Shown: piece after piece, positions 3,703 to 20,093 of the stretch
Layout: every line of letters starts with the position of its first letter
Numbering within the stretch: the first letter of the stretch is position 1
From: an uncultured Lentisphaeria bacterium
Lineage (GTDB): Bacteria > Fidelibacterota > UBA8477 > JABMPR01
Reading direction: 5' to 3'
DNA length: 33,956 nucleotides
NCBI GenBank assembly: GCA_964630195.1
Contig: CAZVSF010000005.1
Coordinates: 1 to 33,956, forward strand
Made by a program: the position numbers and the translations under genes
The notes under the pieces: generated by a model
What the model was told of the DNA's origin: nothing
Seen by the model: only the letters and a program-made list of their open reading frames with translations
Databases searched by the model: none

Positions 3703-4626
3703 ATGAATGAAACTATTTTAATCACAGGGGCTAATGCAGGTCTTGGGAAGGATGCTGCCAGACAGCTCGCACTATTAGATGAAACTAAAAAAATATATTT
3801 GGGTTGCAGAAATGAAACAAAGGCCCTGGCCGCAAAATCTGAACTGGAACAGGTAACGGGAAGATCCATCTTTGAGGTCATGATAGTGGATGTATCGAAG
3901 CCAGCATCAGTGCGCTCAGCCATCGCAAAATTAACCGAACCCATTGACGCATTAATTATGAATGCAGGTGGCATGGGTGGAAAAGCCCCGACTGAGTTAA
4001 CTCCAGATGGTGTTTCCAGTATCTTTGCTACTAATGTATTGGGACATGCCGTTATGGTTGACGCGTTGTTAAAGGCTGGGAAGCTGAAAAATGTTGCCAT
4101 GTATGCCAGTTCAGAAGGTGCCCGAGGTGTTAGGAAGATGGGAATGGCGCGACCCGAACTTAAATCAAATTCAGTCGATGAATTCGTTTCCATATTTAAT
4201 GGGAGTAATTTTGATGATAAGACTGACGGCATGGAGATTTATAGTTATGTCAAGTACGCTGCTACTTTATGGATGTCAGCCTTGGCCCGCAAACATCCAG
4301 ACGTGCGATTTATATCAATGAGCCCAGGGGCAACCAGCGGAACCCAGGTGATGAATGATTTGCCTACCATCCAAAAAATAATGTACAAGTATATTGGTTT
4401 CCCCATTTTGATGCCGTTGTTGGGAATGTCGCACAAGCTTGAGAAGGGCGCTCAGCGATATGTAAAGGCCATCAATGACAAATCATTGACCAGTGGGACC
4501 TTTTATGCAAGCGCAGAGAACAAACTGACTGGGTCCGTCATGGATCAGAGTAGCATTTTCCCTGATCTAAAAAATGAATCCTATCAAGAGAATGCCCTGG
4601 AGGCTATCAAGCGGTTTGCGGCTTAA
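3703..4626 (+). CDS. SDR family NAD(P)-dependent oxidoreductase
   Basis: N-terminal Rossmann motif TGANAGLG, an NAG motif (IMNAGGMG) and YxxxK (YSYVK). RBS aggaaagga lies upstream. Confidence 0.85.
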   Translation: MNETILITGANAGLGKDAARQLALLDETKKIYLGCRNETKALAAKSELEQVTGRSIFEVMIVDVSKPASVRSAIAKLTEPIDALIMNAGGMGGKAPTELTPDGVSSIFATNVLGHAVMVDALLKAGKLKNVAMYASSEGARGVRKMGMARPELKSNSVDEFVSIFNGSNFDDKTDGMEIYSYVKYAATLWMSALARKHPDVRFISMSPGATSGTQVMNDLPTIQKIMYKYIGFPILMPLLGMSHKLEKGAQRYVKAINDKSLTSGTFYASAENKLTGSVMDQSSIFPDLKNESYQENALEAIKRFAA

Positions 4627-4658: not shown

Positions 4659-4689
4659 GAAAGCCCCTGACCAAGATCAGGGGCTTTTA
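4659..4689. terminator. Bidirectional Rho-independent terminator between convergent SDR genes
   Basis: An 11-bp stem aaagcccctga / tcaggggcttt flanked by an A-run on one side and a T-run on the other. Confidence 0.8.
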
Positions 4690-4716: not shown

Positions 4717-5523
4717 TTAAGGTTCGTTTTTATCAATAGCACCTGAGACTTTACGGTGTAAAAATCCTTTAAAAAATGTATTTAGAAATGGGATCAAGCT
4801 TAATTTTTTAGGGATATAGATAGTCTTTTTGTCCTGCTCAATGGCCTGAATGATCTGGGCGACACAATCCTCAAGACTTACGGATTCATCAGTATGTTTC
4901 CGTGGGGATTGGACGGTACCTGATCCCTCGGGACCAAAAGCATTGTCTCTCAGGTTGGTCCCACGTATCCAGCTTAAAACAGCTTCAAGAATGGAGACGT
5001 CACCTCTGAGTTCCATATCAAGTGTTGCCAGAAACCCATGCAACGCATGCTTTGAGGCGACATAACCGGAGTGATTCGGGAAACCCATCAGGGCTTGTGC
5101 AGTTGAGCAACTCACGATCTTTCCACGGGACTGTTTGAGATGGGGGAGGGCTGCATGACAACAATTGACCGCCCCCAGGTAATTCACATCAACCAGATCT
5201 TTGAAAAACGAGATATCTTTGATGTCCTCAAATTTAGCCCACATGCTCACACCGGCATTCAGAACAAGTCCATCCACTTTTGAATAGCGCTCCAGGGTTT
5301 GCTGGACCAGGTTTTCACACGCTGACAGATCTGTGATATCGGTTTGAATTGCAACAGCGGAACCACCTGCGGTGGTGATGGCATTTGTCACACGTTCCAG
5401 CTCATCTATTCTGCGCGCTGCACATACAACCCTGGCACCTCTCTGGGCTAAAACCATGGACAGTTGTTCACCGATCCCAGATGAAGCCCCGGTCACGATA
5501 AAAACTTTTCCGTTTAAATTCAT
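4717..5523 (-). CDS. Classical SDR oxidoreductase, last gene of the lipid operon (candidate acyl/alkyl-DHAP reductase)
   Basis: TGASSGIG, NAG (LNAGVS) and a catalytic S...YxxxK (YVASK). GAGGAG RBS lies 8 nt before the ATG, which is 27 nt downstream of the AGPS-like stop. The functional assignment comes from operon context only. Confidence 0.85.
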   Translation of the reverse strand: MNLNGKVFIVTGASSGIGEQLSMVLAQRGARVVCAARRIDELERVTNAITTAGGSAVAIQTDITDLSACENLVQQTLERYSKVDGLVLNAGVSMWAKFEDIKDISFFKDLVDVNYLGAVNCCHAALPHLKQSRGKIVSCSTAQALMGFPNHSGYVASKHALHGFLATLDMELRGDVSILEAVLSWIRGTNLRDNAFGPEGSGTVQSPRKHTDESVSLEDCVAQIIQAIEQDKKTIYIPKKLSLIPFLNTFFKGFLHRKVSGAIDKNEP

Positions 5524-5550: not shown

Positions 5551-7320
5551 TTAATCAGAAAAAACGTTATTGCGGACACCAAAAATGTTCTTGGGGTCAT
5601 GCGAGGCTTTGATCTGCTTGATCAATTCAATACTTGTGGTTGAGATGGTACCTTTCATAAAATCCTTACGGAGCTTACCCACACCATGATGATGGGAGAT
5701 CGATCCACCGTTTTCCATGATGGCATCTCTCATGGCATGCTCCATCTCAGTGAAAATTTCAATGGGATTGCTGATGCCCTTCACATTGATGGCGAACATA
5801 AAATAGATACAAACCCCTGTATGGTAAATCTGCGGAACACGGTAGGATAGATATGGTTTCCCTGGGATGTTGTACTTTTTATGAAGCTCGGTCAGCTGTT
5901 TTTGAGCGGCTGCACATACCACATTGATCTTACTCCAGGGAACCGAGGTCTCCATGGTTTCACCAACGATATGGTACCTCGTCATGAAATCCCTGATATA
6001 GGCGATGGCAAAAGTCAGGTTGTAGCCCTTTTTGCCATTTTCGGACCCTCCGATGAGACCCTTATATTTTTTGGTCAATCGTTTGATCGTTTTTTGCTGG
6101 AAAGCCACTTCTTCCTTTGAGCCTTCTAATTTAAAGGAAGTCACAACCATCTTGTAAGGGTCAAACCCCTTCACATTTAGAACGAAAAACTTTTCAAGTT
6201 TCTTTGCCAGGACCTTCATCCCAGTCACTTTGGCATTCAAGGCCTGACCAAAACGGAATTGAGCATTATCCATGAGACGAGCGCTGGCTGGTACGGCTCC
6301 ACTTCTGGATAATTCATACATGAAGGCTACGGCAGTATCCCAATCATGGAAAAGTGCTGAATTGAAATCAGAGGCTTCAGGCAGTGTATAAACTTTTAAT
6401 GTGGCTTTGGTGATGATCCCAAAATTTCCTTCAGAACCAAGCAGAATGTTCTGAGGACTGACACCAATGGATGCCCGTGTCAGAGGCTCGATCTGTTCCA
6501 CCACACCCGTGGGCGTGATCATGGTTACATTTTCAACAATGTCTTCAATATTTCCGTAACGGTTTTTCTTCATTCCGCTGGCGTTTGTTGAGATCCACCC
6601 CCCCAGCGTTGACAATTCAATACTATCAGGTTCATGTCCAACGGTCAGACCTTGCGCTTCCAGGCGTTCTTCAAGCACACTTCCGGTAATACCTGCCTGG
6701 ACGACCACACGACGGTTTTCAACATCGATGGACTCAATGGCGTCCATACGGCGGGTATCTACAGCAACCACCATGCGATCTTCAACATCAGGGATCTGAA
6801 GGGCATTGCTGACGCTGGTTCCACCACCATAGGGGATCAGACATACATCGTGCTCGATGGCCAGTTCGATCAAACGTTTTGCTTCATCCTCTGATTCAAT
6901 GTAGAAGACCATGTCTGTGGCCCGGTCGATCTTTGCAAAGACCACTTTATAGACTTCATCAGTGGTCTGACCCTGACTATGAATGAGTCGCTCTTCGTCG
7001 CCAAAGGAATTGCGGTCTTCTGGGAATTCAGATTTGACCGATTCAACAAAGGCTTCATTAATCTTGGCGGCTTGTACAGGTTTATCTTCTGTTTCCGGTA
7101 GGACATCATTCACATCGATCTGCATATCCAACATCTCTTCAACATAAGGAATGAAGTCAGGCATTTCGATGCCACAAAGTTCATAGCGATCGCCGGTCAT
7201 ACTCACGGATCGGTCTTTATTCAGAAGAAATTCCGAATCGCGGAAGCCCCATTTGTAACCCCAGTTTTTATCATTAATTGCGTAAAATTTATCTTTGTTT
7301 GAACCCTTGTTATCGGTCAT
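5551..7320 (-). CDS. FAD-linked oxidase of the alkyl-dihydroxyacetonephosphate synthase (AGPS) type
   Basis: 589 aa. FAD_binding_4-type motif IPYGGGTSV. The C-terminal SHHHGVGKLRK (HHH codons at about nt 5686-5694) corresponds to the HHH loop characteristic of AGPS, not the GlcD/D-LDH relatives. An N-terminal extension of ~150 aa resembles AGPS. The start overlaps the upstream gene's stop (ATGACCGATAA). Confidence 0.85.
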   Translation of the reverse strand: MTDNKGSNKDKFYAINDKNWGYKWGFRDSEFLLNKDRSVSMTGDRYELCGIEMPDFIPYVEEMLDMQIDVNDVLPETEDKPVQAAKINEAFVESVKSEFPEDRNSFGDEERLIHSQGQTTDEVYKVVFAKIDRATDMVFYIESEDEAKRLIELAIEHDVCLIPYGGGTSVSNALQIPDVEDRMVVAVDTRRMDAIESIDVENRRVVVQAGITGSVLEERLEAQGLTVGHEPDSIELSTLGGWISTNASGMKKNRYGNIEDIVENVTMITPTGVVEQIEPLTRASIGVSPQNILLGSEGNFGIITKATLKVYTLPEASDFNSALFHDWDTAVAFMYELSRSGAVPASARLMDNAQFRFGQALNAKVTGMKVLAKKLEKFFVLNVKGFDPYKMVVTSFKLEGSKEEVAFQQKTIKRLTKKYKGLIGGSENGKKGYNLTFAIAYIRDFMTRYHIVGETMETSVPWSKINVVCAAAQKQLTELHKKYNIPGKPYLSYRVPQIYHTGVCIYFMFAINVKGISNPIEIFTEMEHAMRDAIMENGGSISHHHGVGKLRKDFMKGTISTTSIELIKQIKASHDPKNIFGVRNNVFSD

Positions 7321-8041
7321 AAAGTTCCAGTGCCTTTTTTGTAATAGCTGCTTCCAGTGCTGATGTCATTTTATTTGAGGCGGTGCTCAATTCATCTTCT
7401 CCTGGATTGTCAACGCCCAGGAAAGATTCCGGGTAAATCGGTTCAAGAATATAGACTTCAATGGCTGTGGGACGCATAAAAAATTTGCCCCTGGGCCAGG
7501 CTTTGTGTGAACCAAAAATAACTGCAGGTAAAATCGGGGCTTTCAGGTTTAATGAAAACCTTGCGGCACCCTTCTTAAAGGGCAAGATCTTGCCTGGTTC
7601 ACCACGCGTACCTTCAGGAAAAAAAATGAGGCTGCGCTGCTGGTATGCCATAAATGACTTGCATAGTTTTACTGTATCTTTGACGGGAAACTGGGTGACT
7701 CCATTTACTTTACGGTCAATAGGAATCAGGTTCATCACCGTATTGATCATCGTCCGTTTTGTCCAACTGTCAAACCAGTAGTCCTTGGCCGCCATCATGC
7801 CAAAATGATTAAAGCTCTTTTGTGCCGCTGCAGAAAGCAGGGCGACATCCATGTGACTATTGTGATTGCTGCAAAAAATGAACGATTCGTCTGGAATGTT
7901 TTCTCTGCCATGGACTTTCAGGGGGGTATAAAGGGTAAAGACCGTCTTACTGTAATAGTAGAATAAGATCTTCCAGATTTTATAGTAAAAGGGTTGTTTC
8001 CCGACCAGATAGCTGTATTTCGGATTGTCTAAAACATCCAT
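7310..8041 (-). CDS. Lysophospholipid/glycerol-phosphate-type acyltransferase (PlsC/GNPAT superfamily)
   Basis: Motif I NHNSHMDV (HX4D) and motif III FFPEGTRG. 243 aa. The start is 8 nt after the HMGR-like stop and the stop overlaps the AGPS-like start. Confidence 0.85.
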   Translation of the reverse strand: MDVLDNPKYSYLVGKQPFYYKIWKILFYYYSKTVFTLYTPLKVHGRENIPDESFIFCSNHNSHMDVALLSAAAQKSFNHFGMMAAKDYWFDSWTKRTMINTVMNLIPIDRKVNGVTQFPVKDTVKLCKSFMAYQQRSLIFFPEGTRGEPGKILPFKKGAARFSLNLKAPILPAVIFGSHKAWPRGKFFMRPTAIEVYILEPIYPESFLGVDNPGEDELSTASNKMTSALEAAITKKALELYDR

Positions 8042-8049
8042 GGGGCAGC

Positions 8050-9210
8050 CTATTTTCTGCCATATTTCATGTGGGCGTCTGTCCAGGTATGTGAGCCGAT
8101 GGCACAGATAAGCGATATCTCCAGTGCCAGGGTCGCGGCAGCAATAATTTCTGCCAGCTTCCTTGAGGCATGATCACCTTCAGCGCAACCCAACAACTCC
8201 AGGTTACGGTTCTGCATTTTCAGTCGTGTGCCGCCACCTATGGTCCCTACGGTGAGGGAGGGCAGGGTCAGTTTGAATTTGATGGCATCGTCCACCTTCT
8301 CCAGACCCAGATGAGCAATACTATTCTCAGCTGCACAGGCCGTATCCTGTCCAGTGGCGAGATAGATTGCTGTGAGTGCATTCGAAACGTGGAGTCCGTT
8401 ACCGTGCGTTCCAGCAAGGGATGATATCGTGGGGAAAAAGCTCCAGGAATCAAAAAGAATATCTGGATCCATTTTCAGGATGCGACGCATCACGCTGTTT
8501 TTTATGGTGGTTTCTGCTGAGACAGCATGTCCGCGACCTAAAAGCATATTTCTGGAAGAAGCCTTTTTATCACTGTTAAAGTTGGATTCCAGAAAATAAT
8601 TCTGATTGGTTTCTTTTTGAATGTATTCGCAGGCGATCTGGGCTGCCAGGGTGACCATATTTTGACCCGCTGCATTGCTGGTGTCCATGACCAGGTCCAG
8701 GACCACATAGTTTTGCATAGTGTATTGATCGATCCTCAACACCTTCCCATGTTTGGTGGTACTCTCTGCCACTGCTATGATCTTCTTTTCATTCTTCTTG
8801 ATCCACTGTTGAAATTCTGCACTCTCATTAATATCGCGTAGGATGAATACTGGAGCACGGGAGAGTTCCTGCCTGAAATGCCTGACGGTGGTGCCCCCGC
8901 TGATGGTGGAGGCATAAATCCCGCGATTCATGGAGGCTGCCAGCGTGCCCTCGAGAGTACAGAGTGGTACTAAAAAATCACCATTTGCATAGGTACCGTG
9001 AACCGTCATGGGTCCCACAACAGCCAGGGGGATTTTCATGGACCCGACATGCTGCTCAATGATCCCTTTTAGATCTTCAACATCATCTTCAAGTGTATCG
9101 TCAATTTCAACACCACTAAATTTTTTGACCCACTCCCTGCGAGCCTGGGAATCCTCTAAAGTGTAGCCGCGTGGAAGAGTGATGTTGCGCCCGTTATTTT
9201 GTTCAGACAT
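8050..9210 (-). CDS. Class I HMG-CoA reductase-like NAD(P)H oxidoreductase (soluble catalytic domain only)
   Basis: Collinear with my recollection of the human HMGR catalytic domain. TLEGTLAASMNRG aligns with TTEGCLVASTNRG, SDKK...GRG with TDKK...GRG, ATGQD with ACGQD, TVGTIGGGT with EIGTVGGGT, and DAHMKYGR with KSHMIHNR. The catalytic E, K, D and H all appear present. The DAMGMN motif is divergent (NAAGQN). Confidence 0.85.
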   Translation of the reverse strand: MSEQNNGRNITLPRGYTLEDSQARREWVKKFSGVEIDDTLEDDVEDLKGIIEQHVGSMKIPLAVVGPMTVHGTYANGDFLVPLCTLEGTLAASMNRGIYASTISGGTTVRHFRQELSRAPVFILRDINESAEFQQWIKKNEKKIIAVAESTTKHGKVLRIDQYTMQNYVVLDLVMDTSNAAGQNMVTLAAQIACEYIQKETNQNYFLESNFNSDKKASSRNMLLGRGHAVSAETTIKNSVMRRILKMDPDILFDSWSFFPTISSLAGTHGNGLHVSNALTAIYLATGQDTACAAENSIAHLGLEKVDDAIKFKLTLPSLTVGTIGGGTRLKMQNRNLELLGCAEGDHASRKLAEIIAAATLALEISLICAIGSHTWTDAHMKYGRK

Positions 9211-9529
9211 GGTTACCCCATTTATGTATTTTGAATATTAAAGTCTTATCCTGGTAGCGTATATATACTAAAAAAGATGATAAACACAATCACGAAATCA
9301 AATTCTTGAGACCACTTACACAAGGATATTCGGACAAAACAATTCTATAAATTATCCATCAATTTATCAATCCCAATGGAGAAATCCTTTAAATAATAAT
9401 TTCTCGAATAGGGGTCCCGGCGAAAACCGGTGTATCAACCAGCAGCATCACTTCCCATGCGTGATGGTCTTGAATATAAGCTAATGGTTCACACAGAATA
9501 TGAGCACAGAGGATAGTGGAGAACCCAGG

Positions 9530-17108: not shown

Positions 17109-18803
17109 TTATTTTAGCAGGAGAATTTCCTGCTCACTACTGATTTTCCCTGCCACCATGCGGCAAATATAGACACCTGAGGGCATAACCTTACCATCCT
17201 TGTCTCTACCATCCCAATCCTGACGGTAGCTACCAGGCTGGAAATCCTTATTGAGAAGCTCGATGATTTTCTGACCCTTCACATTGTAGATGGCCAGCGA
17301 AACCCGGGTATTTTCTGGTACATCAAATTTTATTTGGGTGGCAGGATTGAACGGGTTTGGCATATTGGGAGCCACGTGGAAATTCTTGGGGAATGAATGC
17401 GTATTCCCATCTGTTCCTACCAATTCACAGGCTGAGTAGACATCCATGGGCAGATCCTGTTCAATACTTAACTCGGCAAGGTCTATCTCCGATATTTCCA
17501 TGGAAATGGTACCTCTATAAACGTCACAAAATCGTGATTCAAATTCAGCAGGTGCTATTTCAGGTACAAAATCTGACATATAGCAGTCACTCATTCCTGA
17601 GGGATCAATATTTATCACCCAGATATCGGCCCCGCTTTCTCCATGCCCTTCGATCTTACCTGTGGCAAACAGGGATCCATCTTCATTTTCATGCAGGGTA
17701 TAAATATCGTTTGTCTGTGTGCCACCATAGGCTTGACTCCATAATAGTTCGCCTCCCTGACTAAATTTTGTAAGCAGGGATCCACGATCACCACTTTCTG
17801 GATCGGTGATAAGACCATAGACAAGAATTCCGTTATCAATTGTTCTGGTGATCGCACGGCCAAAATCATAGCCGGTACCTCCGATCGTTTTAGCCCAATC
17901 CAATTCTCCCATCGCATCAAATTTGATAAGGAATTCATCATAGTCGCCGGCACCCATTGAATGGGTAGCTCCGGTCATAAAAATTTCCCCACTTTCAGTA
18001 ATGAGTGCTGCATCCGAGTTGGTAAGAAGCTCATAATCGCTGCCGCCAAAGCTCTTATTCCAGAGGATATCTCCATTCACATTGAGCTTGATCAAATATC
18101 CATCCGTGGCACCGTACAGATCTTCCCAACTATTTGTGTATGCAAAAACGATGTAATCACCTCCAGGCGTTTCCTTGATAGAATAGGTCACATCGGTTAC
18201 AGGACCACCCAGGACCCGAGACCAGATCACATCACCATATTTTGTTACCTTTAACACAATGATGTCCAGCAAACCCTTGCTGCCGCTACGGGTGGACCCA
18301 TAGATAAGGAACTGGCCATCTAATGTGGGTGTTATGCCCATGATACGATCTTCAACGAGACCACCATAGGTTTTAAAACTGGTCACTTCACCCTGGGGAC
18401 TGATCCGTGAGAAAAACAGGTCAATATCGCCCTTGCCAAAACTTCGTGTGCGCCCAGTGAGGATAAAGCTCCCATCTGCCAGGGTCAAAACGCCAGTTGC
18501 CATATCATCACTACTACCCCCAAAAGCCAGTGACCAGCTCATGTTTCCTGCTGTATCTGCCTCAAAGACCAGGATGTCCTGGCCTCCGGCGCCGTAAGAG
18601 GTGGTATTCCCTGCAAAGACATACCCGTTTGAAGATTGAGCAATGTGTCCAACCAGATCATCGCCTTGACCACCTATGATCATTTGGGCTGTATTGATCT
18701 GGGATAAAACTGATGTAGAGCACAGAGTAAGACTCAAAACGAGTGCAAAAATTTCTAAAAAATGACCATGAACAGGTTTTAGTGCAGACACGATGACCCC
18801 CAT
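17109..18803 (-). CDS. Secreted repeat (beta-propeller-like) protein with C-terminal T9SS/FlgD-Ig-type sorting domain
   Basis: N-terminal hydrophobic signal-like segment. About eight ~50-aa repeats follow the pattern GG.g.D....i..t.DGg.i..G.T.S.G.G..D.l..K....G...W. The C-terminal ~80 aa read PNPFNPATQIKFDVPENTRVSLAIYNVKGQKI...GVYICRM...ILLLK. Confidence 0.85.
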   Translation of the reverse strand: MGVIVSALKPVHGHFLEIFALVLSLTLCSTSVLSQINTAQMIIGGQGDDLVGHIAQSSNGYVFAGNTTSYGAGGQDILVFEADTAGNMSWSLAFGGSSDDMATGVLTLADGSFILTGRTRSFGKGDIDLFFSRISPQGEVTSFKTYGGLVEDRIMGITPTLDGQFLIYGSTRSGSKGLLDIIVLKVTKYGDVIWSRVLGGPVTDVTYSIKETPGGDYIVFAYTNSWEDLYGATDGYLIKLNVNGDILWNKSFGGSDYELLTNSDAALITESGEIFMTGATHSMGAGDYDEFLIKFDAMGELDWAKTIGGTGYDFGRAITRTIDNGILVYGLITDPESGDRGSLLTKFSQGGELLWSQAYGGTQTNDIYTLHENEDGSLFATGKIEGHGESGADIWVINIDPSGMSDCYMSDFVPEIAPAEFESRFCDVYRGTISMEISEIDLAELSIEQDLPMDVYSACELVGTDGNTHSFPKNFHVAPNMPNPFNPATQIKFDVPENTRVSLAIYNVKGQKIIELLNKDFQPGSYRQDWDGRDKDGKVMPSGVYICRMVAGKISSEQEILLLK

Positions 18804-19247: not shown

Positions 19248-20093
19248 ATGAGTAGTGTTGACGTTCAAGAGATCGATCTCATCCTGGGCCATCTCCAGGA
19301 GCAGACCGGATTGGATTTCTTTGGAAATTATTCTTCCATGATCGGCAGGCGTCTTCGAATCCGCATGTCAAAAACCGGGCAGCAATCATATCAGGACTAC
19401 TCGGTCTATCTTCAGCAAAATAATGATGAATTGGCAGAACTTCTTGATTCGCTTACCATAAGTGTGACCAGCTTTTATAGAGATCCATTTACATTTGAGT
19501 TTATTTATGAACATGTATTACCTCATATTTTTGAGGAAAAAGGAAAATCCCGAGATGCGACCTTGCGGATCTGGTGTGCCGGTTGTTCCACCGGTGAGGA
19601 AGCCTATTCCATGGCTATCCTGCTCAAAGAAATGAAGGAAAAACATCCGGATTCAAAGATCGCTCCGTCGATTTTTGCAACAGATATTGATCAACATGCT
19701 CTAGAAGCAGCACAAGCGGGTCGATATAACTTGAAAAGTGTGTGGAATGTGAAGCAGGGGCAAGTCAGCAAATATTTCAAGGTGCATGGCGAGAGCTTTG
19801 AGATAAACACTGAGATAAAGAAATTGGTGGAGTTTTCAACCTTTGATATGCTCAGCGATCTGACACTGGCGCCACCAGACAGTATATTTGGTGGGTTTGA
19901 TATTGTGCTCTGCCGGAATCTATTGATCTATTTTACAGCTGAATATCAGGTCAAGATCATGACCAAACTCTACGAATCTTTGAATCTTAATGGTGTATTG
20001 ATCCTGGGTAAAACAGAGAGACCTCTGGATCCGTACAAACTCAAATTTGTAGAAGAAAACTCACGTGCACGAATCTATAGAAAAGTCGTCTAG
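19248..20093 (+). CDS. cheR: CheR-type protein-glutamate O-methyltransferase
   Basis: CheR_N-like helix region and TSFYRDPFTFE (TxFFRD motif). SAM-binding RIWCAGCSTGEEAYSMAILL, plus FDIVLCRNLLIYF. 281 aa, the typical CheR length. Confidence 0.9.
   Translation: MSSVDVQEIDLILGHLQEQTGLDFFGNYSSMIGRRLRIRMSKTGQQSYQDYSVYLQQNNDELAELLDSLTISVTSFYRDPFTFEFIYEHVLPHIFEEKGKSRDATLRIWCAGCSTGEEAYSMAILLKEMKEKHPDSKIAPSIFATDIDQHALEAAQAGRYNLKSVWNVKQGQVSKYFKVHGESFEINTEIKKLVEFSTFDMLSDLTLAPPDSIFGGFDIVLCRNLLIYFTAEYQVKIMTKLYESLNLNGVLILGKTERPLDPYKLKFVEENSRARIYRKVV

Follow-up and report, generated by a model that had tools for sequence, protein, structure and literature searches.

A core-only FcrA-type reductase with a class-I HMGR fold probably heads a four-gene operon for a dihydroxyacetone phosphate route to 1-O-alkyl glycerolipids

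Many bacterial and haloarchaeal proteins filed as "class-I HMGRs", i.e. as 3-hydroxy-3-methylglutaryl-CoA (HMG-CoA) reductases, form a large monophyletic group of fatty acyl-CoA reductases, which were named FcrA (Grossi et al., ISME J 2025; PMC11948995). Here, we analysed a stretch of 33,956 nucleotides (contig CAZVSF010000005.1 of assembly GCA_964630195.1, referred to as the window), in which the minus-strand gene at positions 8050-9210 encodes a protein with the fold of class-I HMGRs. We consider it probable (roughly 0.78) that this gene codes for an acyl reductase of the FcrA branch, reduced to the core domain, and that it heads a four-gene operon for a complete dihydroxyacetone phosphate (DHAP) route to 1-O-alkyl glycerolipids.

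The purified FcrA of Candidatus Promineifilum breve (Pb-FcrA, CUS01882.1) reduces acyl-CoA of C14 and longer to the alcohol in an NADPH-dependent manner; HMG-CoA is not a substrate, and simvastatin has no inhibitory effect (PMC11948995). FcrA proteins retain the catalytic tetrad of HMGR, and in the protein of Natronomonas pharaonis Ser684 of HMGR is replaced by Glu360, the HMG-binding Lys by Gly411 and Leu862 by Trp528, the latter sitting four residues before the catalytic His532 (PMC11948995). In FcrA generally, the HMG-binding Lys, printed as Lys795, gives way to a small residue, and a substrate pocket that is elongated and hydrophobic is a further mark of the family (PMC11948995). The only role of FcrA shown experimentally is the synthesis of wax-ester precursors, and about a quarter of the bacteria with WS/DGAT have FcrA; a supply of alcohol to alkylglycerone-phosphate synthase (AGPS) has been proposed for some cases, and, among published genomes, fcrA of Coxiella has a PlsC-like gene as its neighbour and an AGPS gene lies nine genes from Pb-fcrA (PMC11948995). 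Bacterial ether-lipid synthesis via DHAP is represented by MXAN_1676-MXAN_1675-MXAN_1674 of Myxococcus xanthus, which encode AGPS, a fusion of a fatty acyl reductase (FAR) with GNPAT, and an NAD-dependent epimerase-type protein (Lorenzen 2014, PMC13012113).

Fold, catalytic residues and separation from canonical HMGRs

8050..9210, minus strand: fcrA-type gene (ATG start, 386 aa) for a predicted class-I-HMGR-fold thioester reductase, core domain only

The encoded protein is covered end to end by the Pfam family PF00368 (HMG-CoA_red; residues 22-385 against model positions 3-368 of 368, E=2.5e-98), which bears out the collinearity with the class-I HMGR catalytic domain proposed in an earlier sequence-only reading of the window, and no Lad, ACP or AMP-binding extension was found by Pfam. 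Its nearest solved structure is 6HR7, the class-I HMGR of Methanothermococcus thermolithotrophicus (E=2.1e-72, 37-39% identity), followed by Arabidopsis HMG1 and then human HMGR; class-II HMGRs reach E-values of about 1e-8 at best. A structure prediction, as suggested by the same reading, recovers the HMGR fold: the AlphaFold2 monomer built from a 29-sequence alignment has 6HR8/6HR7 as its best Foldseek matches (probability 1.00), with a TM-score of about 0.5 and an rmsd of about 15 Å to HMGR structures, a mean pLDDT of 69.5 and active-site loops below 50.

Residues were mapped by alignment to the class-I HMGRs 6HR7 and 8ECG/7ULI (A. thaliana) and in a MAFFT alignment of homologues. For the latter, the 150 most similar representatives of 50%-identity clusters out of 1.84 billion proteins were supplemented with six closer relatives, the window protein and two crystallised HMGRs, and those with a domain match over nearly the full length, 151 sequences, were aligned. 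The columns of the catalytic residues Glu559, Lys691, Asp767 and His866 hold E87 (TLEGTLAAS), K215 (SDKK), D289 (ATGQD) and H380 (DAHM), i.e. the very residues that had been named as catalytic beforehand, and the tetrad is intact at every locus of the scan described below at which the column is present, a gap or X occurring at one position in three loci. The equivalents of D690 and K692 are retained as well (D214 and K216), SRAP aligns to TRAP and thereby keeps the Arg590-equivalent R118, and the alignments to solved HMGRs also display the two motif changes read earlier, SNAAGQN (residues 178-184) in place of GDAMGMN and EGTLAAS in place of EG(A/C)LVAS.

The ligands of the HMG carboxylate are lost: Ser684 is replaced by E208 and Lys735 by F259, and Leu862 corresponds to W376 (WTDAH), four residues ahead of the catalytic His. 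The published Lys795 we take to be this Lys735, judging from residue spacing and the 1DQ9 numbering. With E208, F259 and W376 the window protein bears all three substitutions that set FcrA apart from HMGR. Five of six landmark spacings match the numbering of N. pharaonis FcrA (E-7-K, K-74-D, F/G-30-D, D-91-H and W-4-H), the sixth, from the catalytic Glu to the catalytic Lys, being 128 in the window protein versus 131.

Among the 151 aligned sequences, the combination Ser684/Lys735/Leu862 occurs in 11, all of them with an AMGMN core (DAMGMN in nine), and its co-occurrence with an AMGMN-type motif is confined to these 11 canonical sequences (0 of the 139 others). In a neighbour-joining tree the canonical group comprises 12 sequences, namely the 11 with Ser/Lys/Leu and one with Ser/Arg/Leu; both crystallised enzymes fall inside it and the window family outside, and the split from all others was recovered in 97 of 100 bootstrap replicates of a 64-taxon subset. 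This tree, a phylogeny of the kind that the sequence-only reading had suggested, places the window protein apart from canonical HMGRs. The 139 non-canonical sequences have Lys at the 735 column in a single case, an aromatic residue at the 862 column in 134 and Glu or Asp at the 684 column in 106. An acidic residue at the Ser684 column is common to all 29 window-family members and to all 84 loci, and within this 84-locus set the Leu862 column, where present, is Phe or Trp in all loci but one.

Two features that could be taken as telling turned out not to be. The divergent DAMGMN motif had been pointed out beforehand; the divergence is there, but the idea that it is unique to this gene was rejected, since xxA(A/S)GQN is the commonest motif of the non-canonical homologues (GDAAGQN in 52 and GDASGQN in 22 of the 151 sequences) and therefore represents a signature of the whole clade. 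Peculiar to the window subfamily is only the second residue of the motif, N in place of D. Similarly, the retained Arg had been regarded as leaving a genuine HMGR open. The Arg is indeed kept, but as an argument for HMG binding it was discarded, because Arg590 is retained in 121 of the 151 mostly non-canonical sequences and has no power to discriminate FcrA from HMGR; together with the loss of Ser684 and Lys735 this weakens the earlier caveat.

Profile comparisons gave the same picture. The window protein scores 269.5 bits with the NCBIfam equivalog TIGR00533 (NADPH-dependent HMGR), 172 bits short of the cut-off of 441.8. When hidden Markov models (HMMs) were built from 12 canonical and 132 non-canonical sequences, the window family being left out, the window protein obtained 440.6 bits with the non-canonical, FcrA-type model versus 342.1 with the canonical one (+98.5 bits), whereas the genuine HMGR 6HR7 differed by 98 bits the other way (580.0 canonical, 481.8 non-canonical).

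A genuine but divergent HMGR that makes mevalonate, next to lipid genes that are incidental or co-regulated for membrane synthesis, would account for the full-length class-I fold, the intact tetrad, the kept R118, D214 and K216 and the fact that the nearest solved structure, at 37-39% identity, is a real HMGR. However, Ser684 and Lys735, invariant in the canonical set, are Glu and Phe here and Leu862 is Trp, the score lies 172 bits under the TIGR00533 cut-off, the tree (97/100) and the 98-bit profile difference put the protein outside the canonical group, a characterised FcrA with the same substitutions is inactive on HMG-CoA, and the linkage to AGPS (see below) is strictly conserved. In addition, the Pfam and NCBIfam scans found no mevalonate-pathway family among the other major open reading frames (ORFs) of the 34-kb window, in line with what had been observed before, nor is there a mevalonate-pathway gene among the genes called at six related loci (L001-L004, L073 and L077). 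When the window and the 84 loci (about 1.2 Mb) were searched with E. coli IspH, IspG, IspF, IspD and Dxr, the sole match was IspF in a Planctomycetales locus, which is uninformative on Marinimicrobia. On its sequence the window protein is, from all this, not a canonical HMGR, and we regard mevalonate synthesis as its function as extremely improbable.

Relation to the FcrA family

The assignment of the window protein to FcrA is strongly supported by its sequence signatures together with the published biochemistry of a homologue. The comparison with the assayed enzymes, Pb-FcrA and N. pharaonis FcrA, rests on published residues and numbering and on the profile of the Lad-type subgroup, in which these enzymes were placed by domain architecture. 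Homologues on the FcrA side of the tree carry an N-terminal PF25653 (Lad) domain or are fused to AMP-binding acyl-activating (acyl-AMP ligase), ACP or thioesterase-like domains, which agrees with the published accessory domains and with a fatty-acyl substrate.

Several points weigh against this assignment. The window family forms a distinct, divergent branch, its best representatives from outside the family being 44-47% identical, and with 330.7 bits on the Lad-type subgroup profile versus 342.1 on the canonical HMGR profile the window protein is no closer to the former. The bulky Phe at the Lys735 column differs from the generally small residues of published FcrA, and the Asp of the NADPH motif is Asn; judging from the residues, F259 and this Asn could alter chain-length or cofactor behaviour. 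The tree used for classification is distance-based rather than maximum likelihood. Finally, the AlphaFold2 model is of only moderate quality, good enough to confirm the fold but too poor for the shape of the pocket. In the HMGR fold the substrate pocket forms across the dimer interface.

These deviations bear on a variant of the FcrA assignment, according to which the thioester reductase feeds AGPS but acts on another substrate, i.e. acyl-ACP or a branched, hydroxy or shorter chain, giving unusual ether-linked alkyls. ACP and acyl-AMP ligase fusions of relatives suggest carrier-bound substrates in part of the family, and the aromatic residues F258, F259 and W376 at positions where other FcrA have small ones, as well as the Asn for Asp in the dinucleotide motif, might reflect a different pocket. 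The window protein, however, has no carrier or ligase domain, no feature of its sequence points to an alternative substrate, and among the Marinimicrobia orthologues position 259 is Gly, as in other FcrA, in about half (Gly in 29, Phe in 28 and Tyr in 8; the clade at large mostly has Gly, Ala or Ser). We therefore hold such a substrate to be unlikely and keep long-chain acyl-CoA as the expected one.

Further domain combinations were observed among the homologues. An FcrA-type domain is fused to an APH/EcKL-family kinase domain in three proteins (P0145, P0151 and P0211), one of which (P0151) has AMP-binding and ACP domains in addition. According to a recent report, the 1-O-alkylglycerol kinase is the APH-type kinase domain of ACAD10 (PMC13596139), and these fusions may link alcohol formation to ether-lipid phosphorylation. 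Two other proteins combine an FcrA-type domain with PilZ (P0157 according to Pfam, and P0147 from Chlamydiota according to the protein name in the source). PilZ domains usually bind c-di-GMP, and the fusions hint that some lineages place fatty-alcohol synthesis under the control of a second messenger.

The four-gene operon and its conservation

The fcrA-type gene is followed on the minus strand by genes for an acyltransferase, AGPS and a short-chain dehydrogenase/reductase (SDR), in this order:

7310..8041, minus strand: PlsC/GPAT-family acyltransferase, 243 aa (PF01553, E=2.4e-23)
5551..7320, minus strand: alkylglycerone-phosphate synthase (AGPS), FAD protein, 589 aa (PF01565 and PF02913)
4717..5523, minus strand: classical SDR, 268 aa (PF00106, E=8.7e-46)
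4659..4688, no strand assigned: 12-bp GC-rich perfect hairpin flanked by A/T runs (GAAAGCCCCTGA...TCAGGGGCTTTT, 12 pairs)
9211..9529, minus strand: AT-rich intergenic spacer of 319 nt upstream of fcrA, presumed promoter region

The genes are tightly packed, with a gap of 8 nt between fcrA and the acyltransferase gene, an 11-nt overlap of the latter with the AGPS gene and a gap of 27 nt between AGPS and SDR, which confirms the view that fcrA is the first cistron of a lipid operon. From its sequence, the gene at 5551-7320 is unambiguously AGPS: phmmer aligns its product to the guinea-pig enzyme 4BBY (E=2.4e-139, residues 23-584 to 95-656) and to the Dictyostelium enzyme 2UUU (E=5.5e-78), and the catalytic residues are kept, i.e. 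Tyr578 (CIYF), the His615-617 loop (SHHHGVG) and Arg419 (PASARLMDN). The score is 468 bits to mammalian AGPS versus 266 bits to the Dictyostelium enzyme, an observation that bears on the proposal that eukaryotic ether-lipid genes are of bacterial origin. The acyltransferase, closest among solved structures to T. maritima PlsC (5KYM, E=1.7e-16), has all four GPAT/PlsC motifs I-IV in its translation (NHNSHMD, i.e. HX4D, LIPIDR, FFPEGTR and PILPAVI). The SDR exceeds the cut-off of NF004825 (241 versus 215 bits), and its translation includes TGASSGIG (TGxxxGxG), NAG, YVASK (YxxxK) and an Arg-Arg pair after strand 2.

The hairpin lies between the convergent SDR genes 3703-4626 (plus strand) and 4717-5523 (minus strand) and is probably a shared bidirectional terminator that closes the operon; the total of terminator-like sites in the region is no higher than expected from shuffled sequence, and this hairpin alone is individually convincing. 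In the spacer upstream of fcrA, a sigma-70-like match (9370-9342, 10/12) is no better than those in shuffles, and the consensus may not be that of this phylum. Scans of the window, this spacer included, found no Rfam families and no tRNAs.

In the database, the proteins nearest to that of the window (63-87% identity) are labelled Candidatus Marinimicrobia. In a scan with one genome per GTDB species, 80 loci were collected, the large majority of which are labelled as metagenome-assembled genomes (MAGs) or single-cell genomes of Ca. (Neo)Marinimicrobia; loci at a greater distance, with 47-53% identity, are from Spirochaetota, Fibrobacteria and Planctomycetota. The peptide NAAGQNMV served as the seed of the scan, so that the uniformity of this motif among the loci is partly by construction. 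Neighbouring genes were sought by tblastn with the window proteins, and 72 loci were informative, the other eight lying on contigs too short to judge. All four genes lie in the order fcrA, acyltransferase, AGPS, SDR, on the same strand and within a span of 5 kb, at 60 of the 80 loci (60/72 informative), mainly in Marinimicrobia, and at six further loci, five of them from Spirochaetota, fcrA directly adjoins AGPS without the full cassette. In total, fcrA and AGPS are linked at 66 of the 72 informative loci, and their adjacency persists at 47-52% identity in Spirochaetota and Fibrobacteria. In the Marinimicrobia-type loci the acyltransferase gene always stands between fcrA and AGPS, and the SDR gene closes the cassette in 60 loci. 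No AGPS gene was detected within 8 kb of fcrA at six loci, all from Planctomycetota.

No close positional counterparts of the other window genes were found at these loci, the only matches being at domain level (23-36% identity) at three distant ones, and a 68%-identical orthologue looked up separately has the same four genes between unrelated flanks. From the constancy of the cassette within differing flanks we conclude that the four genes are inherited as a unit. Together with the FcrA-type substitutions and the placement outside canonical HMGRs, this linkage to AGPS across phyla upholds the proposal, first made from the letters of the window, of an HMGR-fold acyl-CoA-to-alcohol reductase that supplies an AGPS-like enzyme.

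The same arrangement bears on the question whether the alcohol made by an FcrA-type reductase ends up mostly in wax esters or as free alcohol, in the manner of Natronomonas. The synthesis of wax-ester precursors is the sole role shown for FcrA, and about a quarter of the WS/DGAT bacteria possess it, but no match of that kind was found among the other major ORFs of the window in the Pfam and NCBIfam scans or among the genes called round the cassette in L001-L004. Moreover, AGPS requires a fatty alcohol, the cassette contains no other fatty acyl reductase, and fcrA is translationally packed with AGPS and its partners in an arrangement conserved in 66 of the 72 informative loci. A main use for wax esters or free alcohols thus appears very unlikely, and the supply of AGPS remains our preferred explanation.

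In four of the Spirochaetota loci (L071, L073, L078 and L083; positions 8001 to about 10900) fcrA and AGPS form a two-gene unit, for which the acyltransferase and the ketoreductase must be encoded elsewhere or not be dedicated enzymes. The flanks of L073, the sole Spirochaetota locus with scanned neighbours, are unrelated (methionine sulfoxide reductase, ABC transporter). Stand-alone FcrA-type genes with 47-53% identity occur in a Ca. Kuenenia stuttgartiensis MAG (L077, 8001-9122), where the gene lies between genes for glutamine synthetase and an AsmA-like protein, and in five other Planctomycetota loci (L072, L076, L081, L082 and L084); the Planctomycetota genes have Glu, a residue other than Lys, and Phe or Ile at the three discriminating positions. 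Anammox bacteria have ladderane alcohols. They are also reported to make alkyl ethers, and the stand-alone gene could be their alcohol-forming reductase.

Elsewhere in the window there are genes for a Fic/DOC protein with a winged-helix domain at its C-terminus (444-1616), an AraC regulator, a Na+/H+ exchanger-like protein and a second SDR. The product of 17109-18803 (564 aa) bears a C-terminal sorting domain for type IX secretion, which fits an organism of the FCB group such as Marinimicrobia. Signalling genes, at least ten in number, are unusually densely packed between 11857 and 33552 and encode, among others, PAS histidine kinases, response regulators, two-receiver hybrid kinases and receiver-PAS proteins; the block includes a CheR-type methyltransferase gene (19248-20093) that adjoins the gene for a 615-aa PAS-only protein. 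Save for distant domain-level matches of 23-36% (L076 and L084), this block is not shared by the orthologous loci.

Proposed pathway and comparison with known systems

The data show the fold, the catalytic residues and the missing HMG ligands of the FcrA-type protein, the identity of AGPS and the conservation of the operon; what FcrA, the acyltransferase and the SDR act on, and which lipid results, is inferred. In a first step, FcrA would reduce a long-chain acyl thioester, most likely acyl-CoA, to the fatty alcohol in an NADPH-dependent four-electron reduction, using the Glu/Lys/Asp/His of HMGR in a pocket without the HMG carboxylate ligands. The PlsC-type acyltransferase would then convert DHAP and an acyl donor to 1-acyl-DHAP, AGPS would exchange the acyl group for the fatty alcohol to give 1-O-alkyl-DHAP, and the SDR would reduce the ketone to 1-O-alkyl-sn-glycerol-3-phosphate (1-O-alkyl-G3P), which could enter ordinary phospholipid synthesis. 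The role of the acyltransferase as DHAP acyltransferase, i.e. as an analogue of GNPAT, is suggested by its context and by analogy to FAR1/GNPAT/AGPS/DHRS7B and Myxococcus; it may instead act at sn-2, so that its acceptor would be either DHAP or 1-alkyl-G3P. The function of the SDR as acyl/alkyl-DHAP reductase is likewise proposed from its conserved position and the pathway analogy. No PEDS1/CarF-like gene is present in the window, and alkyl rather than alkenyl ethers are therefore expected. According to the established mechanism of AGPS, none of the four steps needs oxygen.

The FcrA family, its mechanism and the idea that it feeds AGPS are already published, and of 134 Marinisomatota MAGs from the Black Sea, 49 are reported to have Agps homologues (PMC11868695); in the literature that we searched, neither the compact four-gene operon nor its phylum-wide conservation nor the core-only subfamily is described. 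With four steps in one operon and 60 species-level genomes, the locus supports the published idea more compactly than any other genomic evidence that we found; the idea thereby gains strong genomic support, and the locus points to SAR406 as a producer of ether lipids. In dark and oxygen-poor ocean waters, few bacteria are as abundant as the Marinimicrobia (SAR406/Marinisomatota). The locus makes this abundant uncultured phylum a likely producer of alkyl ether lipids, which are used as geochemical biomarkers, and the four-gene cassette is ready-made for heterologous tests. We give an even chance to the broader view that much of the phylum makes 1-O-alkyl ether phospholipids via an oxygen-independent, eukaryote-like one-operon DHAP pathway in which an HMGR-fold reductase displaces FAR. 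If this holds, Marinimicrobia would be a major unrecognised source of non-isoprenoid alkylglycerol lipids in sea water and sediments, and FAR-based surveys of bacterial ether-lipid capacity would systematically overlook FcrA-based pathways. A 2026 survey of bacterial plasmalogen genes is an example: its FAR queries were eukaryotic, HMGR and FcrA go unmentioned in it, and it reports the full aerobic pathway in six phyla only. The homologues are named "hydroxymethylglutaryl-CoA reductase" wherever the searched collection names them, a label that would wrongly suggest mevalonate metabolism in Marinimicrobia.

Compared with canonical class-I HMGRs (EC 1.1.1.34; 1DQ9, 6HR7, 8ECG), the window protein shares the fold, length, collinearity and catalytic tetrad, the equivalents of R590, D690 and K692 and the C-terminal helix with the catalytic His. 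It differs in the missing S684 and K735 ligands, in Trp for L862 and NAAGQN for DAMGMN, in its score under the TIGR00533 cut-off and in the lack of a mevalonate-pathway context. With FcrA it has in common the class-I HMGR fold and the same catalytic Glu/Lys/Asp/His, the change of Ser684 to an acidic residue, the loss of Lys735, the bulky aromatic residue for Leu862 and the position outside the canonical HMGR clade. The assayed enzymes, however, have an N-terminal Lad domain (PF25653), whereas the window protein consists of the core only, is about 40% identical to Lad-type members and has Phe at the Lys735 position and xNAAGQN instead of GDAAGQN; its gene is part of a compact AGPS operon, whereas the published cases lie beside WS/DGAT or nine genes off AGPS.

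At the level of the pathway, the mammalian peroxisomal system FAR1/GNPAT/AGPS/DHRS7B (PexRAP) has the same four chemical steps, as far as those proposed here are concerned, and a strongly homologous AGPS with identical catalytic residues, but it employs FAR1 where the window has an unrelated HMGR fold and GNPAT where the window has a small PlsC-type acyltransferase, and only in the window are the genes clustered in one operon. The operon of Myxococcus likewise combines AGPS, an acyltransferase, an acyl reductase and an NAD(P) oxidoreductase for DHAP-route ether lipids; its gene order differs from that of the window cassette, and its SDR-type FAR is fused to the acyltransferase, whereas the window has a separate HMGR-fold enzyme. 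This non-orthologous replacement would represent a clean case of displacement, with an HMGR fold taking the place of an SDR-type FAR in an otherwise conserved pathway.

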